From positions 1 through 64,000 of IMG/VR virus record IMGVR_UViG_2875882051_000001: 64,000 nt of DNA; one strand, given 5' to 3'. The DNA is from a virus. Its lineage: Duplodnaviria; Caudoviricetes. How positions within the stretch are numbered: position 1 is the first letter of the stretch; every line of letters starts with the position of its first letter. This document shows, in pieces, positions 10,739-17,801 of this stretch. The translations under genes were made by a program, and so were the position numbers. Below the pieces are notes generated by a model. It was not told where the DNA came from and searched no databases. It saw nothing but the letters and a program-made list of their open reading frames with translations.

Positions 10739-13700
10739 CTAATACTTTTGATTCTTTTTATAGTAAAACCCTACTTCATTCATCCATTGTTCTGTACTTT
10801 GCCCTGTATACAAATTTAAGTTTTGAATAGGCATATTAAGTGACCTATCATTATGGACTACTGAGTTACCCCCATTACTCCTTGCCATATTACTCATAAG
10901 CAATGATTGCATTTGAGCTTGTTCAGCCATTACAGCAGCTCTCATAGCTGCTACTTGACTAGCTATTTCCGACTTTATAAACTGCTCTGTTTGCATGTGA
11001 TTTTTAATTGCTGCACCTTGGCTTACATATGCTACATCGCCTTTAGTGGCCATTTCTGGTGCTATTTCATTTGTATAATATAGCCCAGCTTTATGATTTG
11101 AACTAGTTCCGGTTGCGTAATGTCCTATCTTTGTGCTTTGACTAGCTGTATCATAATAAGTATAAGTTCCAGAATTAGAGTCTGAACCATATTCTGCACC
11201 GCTTCTTATATGAATTAATTCTCCCACTGCTTCTTGAATGGTTTGCTTATTAGAATTTAGTCCAGTTAATAGTGAATCTGATAAGCTTTGACCTGCATTT
11301 TGCCATTGTGGATTATAGGAATTTAATAAATCAACTAACTCTTGGTTATTGCCATTTAACAATATATATCTAGCTTGTGCATTCACTGAGTCGGTTTCTT
11401 GAAGCTTAGAATAATAATCTTTGGTATCTTTTAATTGTTTCTCTAATGTATCCTTTTGTTTGTTGTATTCTTCTTCTAATGCTTTCTTTTTATCATCTGT
11501 ATTCCATTCATCCTGTTGTTTTGACAATTCTTTTTGCAAGTCTTTAATTTGCAACGCATAAGCTTGTTTATCTGCATAGCTAGCAGTGTTGTTCATTTTA
11601 GCTTTTAAGACTGCTATCTTGTTATTATAATCCTGTTCGGTATCACTTCGGCTTGTCTCTGTGCTTTCTTTTTCCAATGCAGCTAATTTTTTATTATAAT
11701 TACTTTCTAGTTTAGTTAATTTAGAATTTATTGAGTTTTCAGCTGCGGTTTCTTCAGCTTTTAATTCATTCTCTATCGCTGTAGTTACAGCTTCGGCTAT
11801 TTTTGTAAGCTTATCTTTCTTTTCCTCTGCAATTTTAACTTGCTGGTCAGCTGAATCCTTAGCATTTTGAATTTCATTTTCAGCAACCATTTTAGCAAGG
11901 TCCATTTCTTTTTCCACACTATCTTGTTTTGCCTTTAGAACCTTTTTTTGAGCTTCTAGTTGCTTCTTGGTGCTTTCATCTGTTGTATTATCTATAGTTG
12001 TATCTAAATCGTCTATATCAGCTTTTATACTGTCAACTTGACTTTTCAATGAAGCGTAATTAGCATCATCTTCAACTTTCATTTTGCTAGCTTTATCTTT
12101 TGAGATATTAGCCATATCTAATTCGTTGTTTAGGCTTGAGAAACTTGAATTACCAGAACTTGAATTAAATGCGTCAACTAAACCATTTGCTAATTTCTCA
12201 TTTAGCTGTATACCATTTTTAGCGCTTTCTTTTGTATTGCTAGAGATATTACCTAATAAGTTATTTTGGGCACTCATAGCACTAAGTAATTTGTTAATAA
12301 CAACACCAAAACGACTATCTACAGCATTAGAAACATCTTTCTTCATTGCATTAACACTAGAGCCATGATCTAATATTCCAGTTCCGCCGCCTAAGTAGTA
12401 TAGTTCGTTTTCACCTGTAGACATTTCCCAGCCATGTTCATGCAAAGTTGTTAGCCCTTCATCTCCGCCACTAGTACCAGTATAATTTGAATCTATTACA
12501 CTTTTAGCAACATTTACGGCAGCATTTACACTTTTCCCTGAAAGTTGCCTAAAAAAGTCACTTATACTTTCTAATATGGATAACGAATTACCAGCATCAA
12601 CATGCACTGATGTATTAGCTTCTTTCCCATTTAAGTCTTCTATCTTTCGATTGGTAGTGTCTATATTTGCATTTGCTTGTTCATTATTAGCTGACGTTTC
12701 CACTGTTGGGGTTTTAGATCCTAATTCATCAGCTTTATCTTCTGTTTCTTTAAATTTTTCTAAAGCGTCTTTATTATTAACATCAATATCCACTTTCGCT
12801 GGACTGCTTGCTAAATGGTCAACTACTGCTTTTTTTACATCATCTGCATTTGCAATAGTTCCATCTTTATTAAATTCAATCTTGACTTGTTCTCCATTTA
12901 TATTTGCTATAGCTACTTTCATTCCATTAGCTTTTTCAATAATAGTCTGCATTTTAGAAACTGTCTCACCAGTATCTATTTTTATGATGCTGTTCCCGTC
13001 AAGTTTTAAATTGCTCATACCGTACTGAACATTAGATGCTAATTGTTGCATTTCCTTAGAAACTTTTTCACCTGTTGCTTTTGCATCATTAGCAAATTTC
13101 TCGCTATATCCGCCAAACTTCCCTGTAAAAGTATCATAAGCACTTGTAATATTTCCTGTAGCTTGATCTACTGTAACATAAATATCATGCCACTTACCTG
13201 TGCTATCTTGTACTCTTTTCATTCCACTTTCGGTAGCATCAGCTATTTCAGAATATTGTTGTTTTAATTTATATAAATCGCCTTGTGTATTCCTATCAGC
13301 TGGCGAAAACATTGTTCCATCAACTTCATTTAAATTACCTTCTAATGATGGATTTTTCTCATAAAGCATATTGAGATATTCTCTACGTTTGGACTTCTCA
13401 ACATTAATTAGATCATCATATTCTTTTTTCTTATCTTCAATTTGCTTCTTATAACTTTCAGCTCTTGCGGTCTCACCAGCTTTTTCGGCTTGTTTTTCCA
13501 TATTGGCAAGTTCATCTAAACCAGTTTTATAAGTTGCACGAGCATCAGCAAAACTTTTTGAAAGATCTTGGGACGCTGATTGGTATTCCTTGGTCGCATC
13601 CTCAGCACTAATTCCTTTTAATCTTTCGCCAAATTGGTTTTTAGTAAAATCTGATTCAGCTGTATTCTTAGCTTCAACCTCAGCTTGAATTTGTTTTACT

Positions 13701-15319
13701 TGTTGTAAGTAGCTTTCAATAGTCTCTACATCTTCTTGACTTAGCTTTCCATGTTCTTGAATCGCCCTTTGCCATCTATCTGTGATTTTATTTTGAATAT
13801 CTTCTACTTGCTTTAATTTTTCGTCGCTTGCTTTTCCGGCTTCATCTAAAACGCCTTGCTCATCTGCATCTATTCCGCCTTTTTCATTGAACATTTTAGA
13901 AAGTTCGTTTTGTAGTTCGCCTTTTCTTTTATTGATTGTAGATTTAGCACCATCAATCATTTCATTTATCTTGCTTTGTATTTTGTCTTGGTTTTCCTTA
14001 CTCATTTTATCATCTGAATTCCCACCAGTAAGAACCATTTCAAAATCATGATATTGCTTTGTAGCTTTTTCAATTCCATCTTTGAAAGAATCTGAAACGC
14101 CTTCCCCGAAGTCTTTGTAAATAAGTTTAGCCTTTTGTAATTCTGCCTTTGACTTAACTACTCCGCCAGTACATGCATTAACTGCTCTTTCCCAGCCATT
14201 CAAATCATCTGTACTAGTATCTACTGATTTGCTTAATAATTCGTGATATGTTACCGCTCCAGCTACTCCAACTATCAACGCACTAGCTGCTCCAGCTGCT
14301 AACCCTCCTGCTACACTAAAACCAGCAAGTGCTGCTTCTCCAGCTTCTGCTCCTGTTCCAATTAGTCCTAACCCTTTTCCTAAAGTTCCACCTAATTTAA
14401 TTAATCCACCTATACTGTTTGTCACTGTTCCGATAGTTTTGGTAACTGGTCCGATAGCCGCTGCAAATAAAGCAGTTTTAATAATGCTTTCTTGCATTGG
14501 TTCTGGTAAATCAGCAAATCTATTCGCCATATCTTGAACTTCATTTGCTATTTTCGTTATTGCTGGTGCTGCTGCTTCTTCTAGTTTAATAGCTGCTGTT
14601 TCAATACTACCTGTCATTTGTTCTATAGCAGATTTAGCATTATCTTGCATAGTTGTTGCCATGTCTTTAGCTGCACCATCAGAATTTTTATAAGACTCTG
14701 TTAAATCATCTAAGCTTTTTTTACCACCTTGCATTAAAACAAGCATTCCACTCATAGCTTCTTGACCGAAAATAGTAGCTGTTAAGTCTTGCTTTTGTTG
14801 TTCTGTTTTACCTTCTAAAGCTTTTGAATATTCTCCAACTATTGTACTTAAAGATTTTAATTTTCCTTGAGAGTCAAAAGCATTAAAACCAATTGATGCC
14901 ATTGCTCCGGCTGCTTCATTACTAGGACTTGCTAATCTAGTCAATGCACTTCTTAAAGTAGTTCCGGCTTGACTTCCTTTGATGCCGCTATTAGCCATTT
15001 CCCCAATAGCTGCTGTAACTTCTTCTAAAGATAATCCCATTGAATGTGCAACAGGCGCTATGTACTTCATCGCTTCGCCCGTATCTGCTACAGCCGCATT
15101 TGTTGCATTGGCATTCTTTGCTAATACGTCAGCCACATGTCCAGCTTGATTAGCTTCTAATCCGAATCCTCTTAATGTACTAGCTGCAATATCAGAACTT
15201 GTTGCAAGACTTTCACCACTTGCTGCTGCTAAATCTAATAATCCTGGCATTGCCGCCATAGTTTCTTGTGTATTAAATCCGGCTGCTGCTAAATTTTCCA
15301 TACCTTCTGCTGCTTGCTT
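10739..15319 (-). CDS. Tape measure protein, exon 2
   Basis: KQAAEGMENLAAAGF...SGIKGSQAGTTLRS TP901-type core; joins exon 1 in frame after splicing. Confidence 0.9.
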   Translation of the reverse strand, partial: KQAAEGMENLAAAGFNTQETMAAMPGLLDLAAASGESLATSSDIAASTLRGFGLEANQAGHVADVLAKNANATNAAVADTGEAMKYIAPVAHSMGLSLEEVTAAIGEMANSGIKGSQAGTTLRSALTRLASPSNEAAGAMASIGFNAFDSQGKLKSLSTIVGEYSKALEGKTEQQKQDLTATIFGQEAMSGMLVLMQGGKKSLDDLTESYKNSDGAAKDMATTMQDNAKSAIEQMTGSIETAAIKLEEAAAPAITKIANEVQDMANRFADLPEPMQESIIKTALFAAAIGPVTKTIGTVTNSIGGLIKLGGTLGKGLGLIGTGAEAGEAALAGFSVAGGLAAGAASALIVGVAGAVTYHELLSKSVDTSTDDLNGWERAVNACTGGVVKSKAELQKAKLIYKDFGEGVSDSFKDGIEKATKQYHDFEMVLTGGNSDDKMSKENQDKIQSKINEMIDGAKSTINKRKGELQNELSKMFNEKGGIDADEQGVLDEAGKASDEKLKQVEDIQNKITDRWQRAIQEHGKLSQEDVETIESYLQQVKQIQAEVEAKNTAESDFTKNQFGERLKGISAEDATKEYQSASQDLSKSFADARATYKTGLDELANMEKQAEKAGETARAESYKKQIEDKKKEYDDLINVEKSKRREYLNMLYEKNPSLEGNLNEVDGTMFSPADRNTQGDLYKLKQQYSEIADATESGMKRVQDSTGKWHDIYVTVDQATGNITSAYDTFTGKFGGYSEKFANDAKATGEKVSKEMQQLASNVQYGMSNLKLDGNSIIKIDTGETVSKMQTIIEKANGMKVAIANINGEQVKIEFNKDGTIANADDVKKAVVDHLASSPAKVDIDVNNKDALEKFKETEDKADELGSKTPTVETSANNEQANANIDTTNRKIEDLNGKEANTSVHVDAGNSLSILESISDFFRQLSGKSVNAAVNVAKSVIDSNYTGTSGGDEGLTTLHEHGWEMSTGENELYYLGGGTGILDHGSSVNAMKKDVSNAVDSRFGVVINKLLSAMSAQNNLLGNISSNTKESAKNGIQLNEKLANGLVDAFNSSSGNSSFSSLNNELDMANISKDKASKMKVEDDANYASLKSQVDSIKADIDDLDTTIDNTTDESTKKQLEAQKKVLKAKQDSVEKEMDLAKMVAENEIQNAKDSADQQVKIAEEKKDKLTKIAEAVTTAIENELKAEETAAENSINSKLTKLESNYNKKLAALEKESTETSRSDTEQDYNNKIAVLKAKMNNTASYADKQAYALQIKDLQKELSKQQDEWNTDDKKKALEEEYNKQKDTLEKQLKDTKDYYSKLQETDSVNAQARYILLNGNNQELVDLLNSYNPQWQNAGQSLSDSLLTGLNSNKQTIQEAVGELIHIRSGAEYGSDSNSGTYTYYDTASQSTKIGHYATGTSSNHKAGLYYTNEIAPEMATKGDVAYVSQGAAIKNHMQTEQFIKSEIASQVAAMRAAVMAEQAQMQSLLMSNMARSNGGNSVVHNDRSLNMPIQNLNLYTGQSTEQWMNEVGFYYKKNQKY

Positions 15320-15588
15320 CAATTGTTATGTATAGATGTTTATTCTATACTCTCCGCATTTCTTACGGAGTATCGGAGTACATTTTCACCTTCGGCATTA
15401 TCCGCTAAGGTGGCAACCACTCTTGGGAACATTATATTTATTCAGTTCCTACTCTCTACGGTGGGTTATAGCCTTTCGCAATCTATAACCTTACCTCGGT
15501 ATTACCATATTAATATATAACTTAGGTTTCACCGATTTTGGTCGCTTATTTATGCTGCTAATTTCTTAACAGTGTGCCAAGTATGTCT
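15320..15588 (-). ncRNA. Group I self-splicing intron (IA-like), 269 nt, no ORF
   Basis: 5' exon ends in U, intron ends in G; P1/P10 guide, P2, P3, P4, P6, P7 (GAGAGUA/UACUCC), P7.1, P8, P9 pair by eye; removal restores DTAFSA|KQAAEG. Confidence 0.92.
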
Positions 15589-16353
15589 AGCACTGAAAGC
15601 AGTATCTTTCCCTAATTGTAAAGCTTGATCGTGTAGTTGTTTGAATTCTTCCCCTGTTGCTCCTGAGATAGCCTTAACTCTCGACATTTGTGCATCAAAG
15701 TCAGCACCAGTTTTTAATGCTACTGCCCCCATTAATGTAAGTGGAGCTGTTACATTTCTTGTGAAAGAATCTCCTACATTGGAAAGTAATTTCCCTGTTT
15801 TACTTATACTTTCAGCTACAGAAAAGTTCTTAAAGCTCTTTTCCGCTTCTTCTACCTTTTTCTTTATATTGTCAATAGATTTAGTTGCAGACATACTGGC
15901 ACTAGAAAAATTGCCATCCAAACCGTTAATGGCATCCTTAGCAGAATCTAAGCTTATCTTTTTATTATTTAAGCTATTTAGTTTAGTTTCCAACTTAGTA
16001 ATACTAGCTTCAGCTTTTTCCATCTGACTAGCTATTTTATTTTGATCTTTTACATTTGTAGCATTCTCATAAGCTTTCTTTAAATTTTCTAGTTTTTCTT
16101 TCTGCTTATCTAATTGAGTGCTAGTTTTTTCTATACTTTTAGAAACATTCTCTAACTGCTTAGGAATTTTGCTAAAATCAATATTCTTGGCTGCTTTACC
16201 AACGTTATTAATAGAACTTTCGGCTTGCTTCATTGCCTTATCAACGCCTTTTCCAAGTCCATCAGCAACCTTTTTACTGGCAGTATCAACATCCTTTTCA
16301 AATCCACTGGTATCAAGCTTAGTATCAATAATTATCTTTCCGTCATTTGCCAT
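15589..16353 (-). CDS. Tape measure protein, exon 1
   Basis: MANDGKIIIDTK start with GGAGGTG RBS; ...FDAQMSRVKAISGATG...GKDTAFSA; spliced product about 1781 aa. Confidence 0.9.
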
Positions 16354-16394
16354 ACAAGTAACACCTCCTTCCAACTAAAAAAGAGCAACCTAAG

Positions 16395-16985
16395 TTACTC
16401 TTGTAGTTCTGATAAATCTCCACCCCTTTTAAGAATTGAAGCCAACTGTTTATTGTGTTTAACTTCACTTTCAGGACGTGGAATTGCATATATTTTTTTT
16501 AATTTTGTATAGTGATCTTTCATATTTTTATCTTGAGTTTTATTTAAATCTATAGCTCGTATAGACATTATTTTCGATATCTCATTATCTTCTTTTAAGG
16601 AATTAAACATAGCTTTAAATTTCCACCAATGAAGATTTGTTTCTTGTAGATCTACTCCATATTGGTCTAAAAATGCACTATAAATTTTATCTCCATCATA
16701 GTCAAAATTATAAATATCTTCTTTATTAGAATTTGCTTTTTTCTTTTTGCTTTCTTCTTTACCACACCTATAAAACCAAATCAGTTTTTCTATCGCTTGA
16801 TTTATATTTAATGGAATGTTAGGGTAATAAATCTCTAATGCTCTAGTAAATATTTCTTGATCATCTAATGATTTGTCATTAAATAATTGCTCAAACTTAA
16901 TAGAAAAACGGAAGTCAGTATTTATTTTAACTTCCGCTCCATCTATTAAAACATATTCGGGCAATTTTTCTAGTAAAATACTCAT
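16395..16985 (-). CDS. Gp15-family tail assembly protein
   Basis: INTDFRFSIKFE...IYSAFLDQYGVDL...LHWWKFKAMF. Confidence 0.85.
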   Translation of the reverse strand: MSILLEKLPEYVLIDGAEVKINTDFRFSIKFEQLFNDKSLDDQEIFTRALEIYYPNIPLNINQAIEKLIWFYRCGKEESKKKKANSNKEDIYNFDYDGDKIYSAFLDQYGVDLQETNLHWWKFKAMFNSLKEDNEISKIMSIRAIDLNKTQDKNMKDHYTKLKKIYAIPRPESEVKHNKQLASILKRGGDLSELQE

Positions 16986-17003
16986 ATCATTGCCCCTTTC
17001 TTA

Positions 17004-17801
17004 CTATGCTTTAGCTGTTACTGTAGCAATACCTGCTTTTTTAGCTTTTAGACTTGAATCAACTTCAACTATGCAAATTCTATTACCTGTAACTGCGGTT
17101 ATATCCGCGCTTCCATTCCATACTTGATATCCTGAACAATCATCATTTAACGCTGGCGCCGTTACTGTACTTGCTGTCTTATACATATAGAAATTACCGC
17201 TTGTTAGTGGTTCAGTTATTGTAATTTTAGTTGTTCCGGTAGCTGAACCTGCAGCTGATGTAACTGTTAATGTTCCAAGAGTTTCTAAATACTCCCCTTC
17301 ATGGAATTCTTTTTCTTGAATATCGAAATATCCGAAGACAGGATCACCAACACAGTTTAAATTTCCTGATCCAGTCATTGTTTCTCCACCAGCACCTTGG
17401 CTGTTTGTAACCTCAACAGCAACCTTAAATTTTCTAGCTTTAAAGTATCTAGTTGAACCTGGTAGCGCAGGCAGGAATAACTCTACTCTTACATATTCTC
17501 TTTCTGCATCAGCTCCAACTGCGTGATTTCTTCCTATAAAATATAATTCTTCAACAGCTTCGATTTCTGCTGCTTCTTCATCATCTGCATCGTTATACAT
17601 TAAATCTAAATCATATGCAAATTTTGTTTTATACCCTTTAATTGTAGTTGATTCATTTTTGTCAGGTATATAAGTTTTACTCTCAACTTGAGCTCCAACA
17701 TCTTCATTAAGAGTATTGAAACCAGTACCCATAAATGCAAATTTCTCTGAAGATTTAATTAATAAATAATCAGCTATATCACTTCTTACTATTTTCTTCA
17801 T
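17004..17801 (-). CDS. Major tail protein
   Basis: MGTGFNTLNEDVGAQVESKTYI motif; C-terminal accessory domain. Confidence 0.8.
   Translation of the reverse strand: MKKIVRSDIADYLLIKSSEKFAFMGTGFNTLNEDVGAQVESKTYIPDKNESTTIKGYKTKFAYDLDLMYNDADDEEAAEIEAVEELYFIGRNHAVGADAEREYVRVELFLPALPGSTRYFKARKFKVAVEVTNSQGAGGETMTGSGNLNCVGDPVFGYFDIQEKEFHEGEYLETLGTLTVTSAAGSATGTTKITITEPLTSGNFYMYKTASTVTAPALNDDCSGYQVWNGSADITAVTGNRICIVEVDSSLKAKKAGIATVTAKA

Follow-up and report, generated by a model that had tools for sequence, protein, structure and literature searches.

The tail module of this prophage raises a simple question: why does a tape measure gene that is continuous in nearly all of its relatives appear here as two open reading frames? 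Our window, the whole 64,000-nt stretch analyzed (positions 1 to 64,000 of the 85-kb IMG/VR record IMGVR_UViG_2875882051_000001, which is rated 100% complete), carries on its minus strand a 274-codon ORF (16374..15550) and a 1527-codon ORF (15322..10739) with a frame break between them. An initial annotation made from the letters alone had proposed that a group I intron interrupts the tape measure gene, and this proposal is now backed by an Rfam match, 113 empty alleles, the continuity of the Pfam and PHROG profiles across the junction, and covariation among homologous introns. We are confident that the insert at 15588..15320 is a 269-nt, ORF-less group I intron, judging from its sequence and predicted fold, and that it lies in the part of a Clostridium siphovirus-type prophage tape measure gene that encodes the N-terminal PhageMin_Tail domain. 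The coordinates of the exons, the intron and its helices are collected in Table 1.

Table 1. Exons of the interrupted tape measure gene and predicted elements of the insert, in window coordinates
Feature	Position	Strand	Remarks
Tape measure exon 1	15589..16353	minus	255 codons; ends ...DTAFSA, AGT GCT
Tape measure exon 2	10739..15319	minus	1526 codons + stop; starts AAG CAA = KQAAEGMENLA
Group I intron, no ORF	15320..15588	minus	269 nt; IA-like (P7.1 present); intron nt n = window 15589 - n
P1	15574..15593	minus	Exon GUGCU + intron AG with guide UUGGCAC; U.G wobble at 5′ splice site (15589); from sequence and MFE fold
P10 guide CUU	15581..15579	minus	Pairs with 3′ exon AAG (15319..15317)
P2 hairpin	15555..15572	minus	GAAA tetraloop; in-frame UAA next, 15552..15550
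P3	15413..15545	minus	15545..15539 with 15419..15413; encloses P4-P5-P5a-P6-P6a (15535..15460), P7 5′ strand and P7.1
P7	15375..15456	minus	GAGAGUA 15456..15450 with UACUCC 15380..15375; A15455 bulged; pseudoknot with P3
P7.1	15449..15426	minus	Enclosed by P7
P8	15412..15387	minus	Enclosed by P7
P9	15370..15352	minus	MFE fold
P9.1	15350..15330	minus	GUAUAGA/UCUAUAC; MFE fold; then 3′ tail and terminal G (15320)

The interrupted gene and its intron-less relatives

The gene is of the TP901 type. Profile positions 4-292 of phrog_1533 (tail length tape measure protein) fall in exon 1 and positions 293-794 follow from residue 1 of exon 2, while Pfam PF10145 (PhageMin_Tail) enters at profile position 16 at exon 2 residue 2. 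The start codon is the ATG at 16353, found 8 nt 3′ of an AGGAGG Shine-Dalgarno sequence, rather than the TTG at 16374 where the ORF caller places it. The neighbouring genes fit a tail module, with a tail completion protein encoded upstream and Dit and a tail protein downstream. Immediately preceding the tape measure gene are two genes (16395-17801, minus strand) for proteins of 196 aa (phrog_706) and 265 aa (phrog_3099) that match PHROGs of unknown function only; from their position we would expect a tail chaperone and a major tail protein.

Relatives of the tape measure gene were taken from 80 loci in IMG/VR and 38 loci in species genomes, nearly all from Clostridium or other Clostridia. Uninterrupted alleles with the exon ends 0 nt apart accounted for 77 of the 80 viral loci and 36 of the 37 genomic loci that could be scored, and about 96% of the close relatives retrieved are without the intron. 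A survey of intron-less alleles had been suggested as a check in the initial annotation, and the exact abutment of the exons in these 113 alleles confirms the boundaries given there, a 269-nt intron ending in G after AGT GCT. One intron-less allele, L003, matches the first 120 residues of exon 2 at 99% identity and reads straight through as LGKDTAFSAKQAAEGMENLAAAGF. When phage records were considered more widely, the junction region was covered in one place in 1080 of the 1092 records having a match.

The intron begins with AGACAUACUUGGCAC and ends with AAUUG, flanked by GCT (15589) and AAG (15319). With the 5′ site fixed, the reading frame and stop codons leave G15320 as the only possible 3′ end. 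Joining the two exons gives 255 + 1526 = 1781 aa and the junction ...GKDTAFSA-KQAAEGMENLA..., as had been predicted, and the same peptide is found in the uninterrupted allele L003. The unspliced message had been said to stop after 7 intron codons, which is incorrect; from ...GKDTAFSA the frame continues through 12 intron codons (RHTWHTVKKLAA) before reaching the UAA at 15552..15550. The longest open stretch on the sense strand inside the intron is 33 codons.

Rfam match and predicted structure

Searching the whole window against Rfam at gathering thresholds gave no match; the threshold for RF00028 is 50 bits, and a permissive search is needed to see the intron. The RF00028 search proposed for this locus returned a significant match covering the full model (positions 1-253 at 15605..15352, E 2.7e-8 in a 601-nt search), but the score of 38.4 bits is under the gathering score, so membership in group I rests on structural features and routine annotation misses the intron. 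Across the whole 85-kb record, the permissive search gave this match as its sole hit (E 9.2e-10).

The minimum free energy (MFE) of 15600..15310 is -82 kcal/mol versus -54.8 +/- 4.5 in shuffles (z -6.1), with none of 200 shuffles as stable. The MFE fold recovers P1, P2, P3, P4-P5-P5a, P6-P6a, P7.1, P8, P9, and P9.1; P7 is absent from this nested fold because it crosses P3. The helix list of the initial annotation held for P1, P2, P3, P6a, P7 (with one bulged A), P7.1, P8, and P9, but the first pair it gave for P4 sets A with G and is no pair. Corrected, P4 is UCGGU(G)/(U)ACCGA, and P5/P5a, P6, and P9.1 were missing from that list yet are present. The P5 loop is about 12 nt.

P7 had been read as a compensated variant of GACUA/UAGUC, a reading in line with the Rfam alignment; in its middle pair, G-C replaces the C-G of the RF00028 consensus. 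We presume that G15454-C15376, adjoining the bulged A15455, is the guanosine-binding pair, and we take it to be the counterpart of G264-C311 in the Tetrahymena intron. Typical IA2 introns have both P7.1 and P7.2 between P7 and the 3′ strand of P3. Here a single hairpin, P7.1, is in that position, and no second hairpin was found there in the fold or in an alignment of seven sequences (see below), so we describe the intron as IA-like, short of choosing between IA1 and IA2.

Homologous introns at the same site

Introns were identified at the same site in L009 (269 nt; 93.5% identical by BLAST, 93% globally), in L005 (580 nt), in L100 from Clostridium polyendosporum (284 nt, 72% identical), and in three gut-metagenome contigs, L139 (306 nt), L170 (1278 nt), and L141 (1303 nt). 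Two further copies at the tape measure site, L146 and L147, are truncated by contig ends and, like L170 and L141, are HNH-bearing relatives. These four share the insertion site after ..FSA and the guide, and their P1-P8 core can be aligned with that of the window despite extra P9 hairpins; the tape measure exons of the HNH-bearing relatives are only about 37-47% identical (protein) to the window's. A pattern scan of metagenomes produced 44 loci, just 5 of which are true relatives. Scanning viral contigs for the P8-J8/7-P7 motif added four loci that are neither tape measure genes nor close intron relatives; L088 alone among them gave a match, a short one of 49 nt.

The window and its six full-length homologues (seven sequences) were aligned with loop insertions removed, and 62 pairs in P1-P4, P6, P6a, P7, P7.1, P8, and P9.1 were scored; P5, P8a, and P9, which shift between clades, were omitted. 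Standard pairs fill 98.2% of the cells in this core set, and compensatory changes affect 29 of the pairs. Column shuffles gave means of 85% and 12, and 0 of 1000 reached either figure, though the seven sequences are related and represent 3-4 lineages, so this count overstates independence and is not a probability. Sliding the 3′ partners by 1-3 columns lowered pairing to 33-40%. Compensatory changes were seen at 5 of 7 pairs in P2 (100% of cells paired), 4 of 7 in P3, 5 of 8 in P6a, and 1 of 6 in P4, the last three helices being 95-100% paired, as well as at 5 of 5 in P7.1 and 4 of 7 in P9.1. P7, which likewise has several compensatory pairs, is 100% paired, with an A-U changed to C-G in five relatives and the G-C beside the bulge invariant in all seven sequences. 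Also invariant across the seven are P1 (GUGCU/GGCAC, with U15589 opposite G) and the terminal G. P10 covaries with the first codon of exon 2, being AAG/CUU in the window and L005, AAA/UUU in L009, and AGU/AUU in L139, and the differences between the window and L009 are either in loops or compensated in stems. Taken as comparative evidence, the covariation is the pattern that a functional ribozyme fold predicts.

The 14-nt loop of P7.1 (UGAAUAAAUAUAAU, 15444-15431) is almost invariant in the seven homologues, its sole change being U to C in L009. The CAAGAG that comes after P7.1 (15425-15420) is invariant in all seven, whereas all five P7.1 stem pairs vary. Conservation of the loop together with CAAGAG suggests that they may make a tertiary contact.

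The endonuclease gene and its decay

In L170 and L141, the terminal loop of P5a (the P5 loop) accommodates a zinc-finger/HNH ORF of 301 aa, whose product has several CxxC motifs and carries an HNH domain (PF01844, above cut-off) at its C-terminal end. In L005 the P5 loop holds an insert of about 300 nt (L005:1332-1625) that has no intact ORF and is a frameshifted, internally deleted remnant of an HNH gene, although the rest of the L005 intron is intact. It matches the L170-type protein in two frames (tblastn E 6e-11, residues 71-125), and residues 232-278, which hold the HNH domain, are missing from the tblastn matches. With blastn the L005 insert matched nothing among phages, and the homology is visible at the protein level only. 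The window, L009, L100, and L139 have merely a short loop at this position, and neither an HNH domain nor a relative of the L170 endonuclease was found in the 85-kb record. With HNH-bearing relatives at the same site, one decayed remnant, and no HNH in the record, the earlier statement that the intron has no homing endonuclease and is either immobile or mobilized in trans is a reasonable one.

The homing-intron cycle runs from an endonuclease-bearing intron through decay of the gene to an ORF-less intron and then an empty site (PMC3984707). Judged by its same-site relatives, the window copy represents the ORF-less end state of this usual cycle, its endonuclease gene having disappeared altogether. 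A single tape measure site thus displays the natural life cycle as a series, from an intact HNH gene through a decayed gene and ORF-less copies to empty sites.

Predicted splicing and other readings of the insert

The gene would be transcribed as one pre-mRNA, on which a ribosome would read the 12 intron codons and halt at the UAA just past P2; this stop probably serves to stall the ribosome. In the folded RNA, P1 would offer the U.G pair at the 5′ splice site, and a guanosine bound by the G-C pair of P7 would attack there. P10 (CUU with AAG) would position the 3′ exon, the terminal G would then occupy the guanosine site, and the exons would be ligated in frame, restoring ...DTAFSA-KQAAEGM... 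and the 1781-aa tape measure protein. We infer catalytic activity, and with it splicing, from the sequence features described above. If splicing failed, the 274-aa fragment would be the only product, so tail assembly would depend on splicing.

That splicing might be regulated and act as a gate on late-gene or tail expression had been raised in the initial annotation, but we found no support for such a control point and the same speculation could be applied to any phage intron. Splicing necessarily precedes synthesis of the tape measure protein, and beyond this nothing specific points to regulation. No ligand-sensing or extra regulatory domain is present, and both the distribution of the intron and the series of endonuclease gene decay fit a selfish element. 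Since about 96% of close relatives do without it, the intron is dispensable, and we consider a regulatory role improbable.

We also weighed whether the insert is a group I descendant that no longer splices, in which case the tape measure gene would be a pseudogene and the prophage could not build tails. Decay is frequent in prophages, and an intron with no endonuclease gene and a sub-threshold Rfam score would be in keeping with it. However, the catalytic landmarks are all intact (the U.G pair, the terminal G, and the bulged-A/G-C site in P7), substitutions relative to both L009 and the distant homologues keep pairing, and the two exons are open over 1781 codons in a record rated complete. A dead intron is therefore very improbable.

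Another reading needs no splicing at all: the gene could be split into 274-aa and 1527-aa proteins, the second starting from the TTG at 15322, with the structured RNA an intergenic element. The ORF caller does list the TTG-initiated 1527-aa ORF, but this TTG coincides with the final 3 nt of the intron, no Shine-Dalgarno sequence precedes it, and the break lies inside a Pfam domain, between profile positions 15 and 16; on these grounds we rejected separate initiation of exon 2 at the TTG. Furthermore, 113 relatives are continuous at exactly this point and the insert's match to the group I model is full-length, which makes a split gene extremely unlikely. Lastly, an antisense 68-aa ORF (15314..15520, plus strand) is in the ORF caller list, and four homologues have open antisense stretches of 57-69 codons, but 16% of mononucleotide shuffles are open for at least as long, the open frames of L100 and L139 differ and encode unrelated peptides, and with no peptide conserved in homologues we rejected the ORF as chance and see next to no prospect of its being a real gene.

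Lateral movement and the wider intron family

Reading the insert as a group I intron, we compared its divergence with that of the surrounding gene. The window and L009 introns are 93% identical versus mostly 58-76% for the surrounding exon DNA. Two stretches depart from this: the 30 nt past the junction, whose conservation extends to intron-less alleles, and a patch of 91% identity lying 300-600 nt upstream, which the intron-less L007 has as well. A 93%-identical copy amid divergent flanks suggests lateral transfer.

The 5′ exon sequence GTGCT, needed for P1, is present in all intron-bearing alleles versus 26 of the 113 intron-less ones, and the exon hexamer AGTGCT is found in every intron-bearing allele. 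In the closest intron-less allele, TCA GCA stands in place of the window's AGT GCT and encodes the same Ser-Ala. This switch fits either a short flanking tract co-acquired with the intron or selection for P1 pairing; a clean co-conversion tract relative to L003 could not be demonstrated, as the genes differ throughout (~90% identity).

How the intron spreads we infer as well. It is possible, and we suggest it only tentatively, that this endonuclease-less intron is still spreading among divergent tape measure genes, either by means of an endonuclease acting in trans or by recombination through the short conserved flanks. Collaborative or trans homing of this kind would draw on an endonuclease supplied by a co-infecting phage or prophage. 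If this suggestion is right, the N-terminal PhageMin_Tail segment would be a hot spot, with one intron lineage hopping among sites and phages.

Relatives of the intron core were detectable in 16 of a sample of 397 Clostridiaceae species genomes, four of them in tape measure genes. One of these four is at the window's site and the other three are at two sites 10-12 codons downstream (between ..EYMA and MAGW.., and between ..YMAMA and GW..). The downstream-site introns (L177:60-1640, L182:1260-1720, and L173, reverse strand, about 570-1730) have cores 75-84% identical to that of the window, both of their sites are preceded by the exon hexamer ATGGCT, and the HNH ORF of L177 is 35% identical to that of L170.

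Weaker core matches occur in Clostridium, Clostridioides, crAss-like and other phages. Two intron-core hits with identical statistics, L175 and L187, lie ~68 kb apart, at about 1.95 and 2.02 Mb on contig 1 of one Clostridiaceae genome (G186), and outside tape measure genes. In another genome (G316, contig 93, 18017-19232; L172/L188), an intron relative has a ~1-kb insertion between its P2-P5 and P5-P8 parts. This insertion is presumably an endonuclease gene, and the host gene does not encode the window's tape measure protein.

Comparison with known introns

Phage IA2 ribozymes such as T4 td and Twort orf142-I2 have P2, P7.1, and P9.1, with GAAA loops capping P2 and P9, and an in-frame stop lies close to their 5′ end. 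Set against this general architecture, the window intron shares P2, P7.1, P9.1, the GAAA loops, and the early stop, but has no P7.2. At the sequence level, its P4-P7 core (intron nt 85-171) shares 80-87% identity with introns found in Staphylococcus phages ROSA, IME1365_01, Rosita, vB_SepS_BE20/BE28, and PG-2021_93/_90, with a weaker likeness to Staphylococcus phage SA2 (69.9% over nt 42-174). The Staphylococcus phage introns differ from that of the window in P1, P2, and P9, and they lie in or adjoin annotations of the terminase large subunit, HNH, and dUTPase. The ROSA intron has been linked to the B. cereus term-IVS2 intron (PMC2504315).

The initial annotation had mentioned group I introns in the tape measure genes of Firmicute phages, and the literature confirms this. 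Tourasse and Kolsto (2008) described TMP-IVS1, IVS2, and IVS3a/b at three tape measure sites in B. cereus-group prophages (PMC2504315). Those introns mostly have no endonuclease genes, are classed as IA1 or IA2, and reach an in-frame stop early, 'within 27 nt' (PMC2504315). In the B. cereus group, similar introns were found at different sites and near-identical ones in different phages, and related introns take neighbouring sites by altering P1 (PMC2504315). The window intron resembles the B. cereus TMP introns in being IA-like, in residing in a Firmicute prophage tape measure gene, in having an early in-frame stop and no endonuclease gene, and in having relatives at neighbouring sites and a close copy in another phage. 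It differs in that its host genus is Clostridium, in belonging to another sequence lineage, and in stopping slightly later, after 12 codons (39 nt). By description, the tape measure intron of Lactobacillus delbrueckii phage JCL1032 (Table 3 of PMC2504315) is alike as well, being a group I intron in a siphovirus tape measure gene with a low-GC Gram-positive host.

Group I introns in prophage tape measure genes have thus been known since 2008, and the window copy adds no new mechanism. Annotation that overlooks the intron wrongly splits the tape measure gene into two ORFs, both here and in at least six related phage or prophage contigs. The puzzle of 2008, how introns that have no endonuclease reach different phages, recurs here in the Clostridium lineage.
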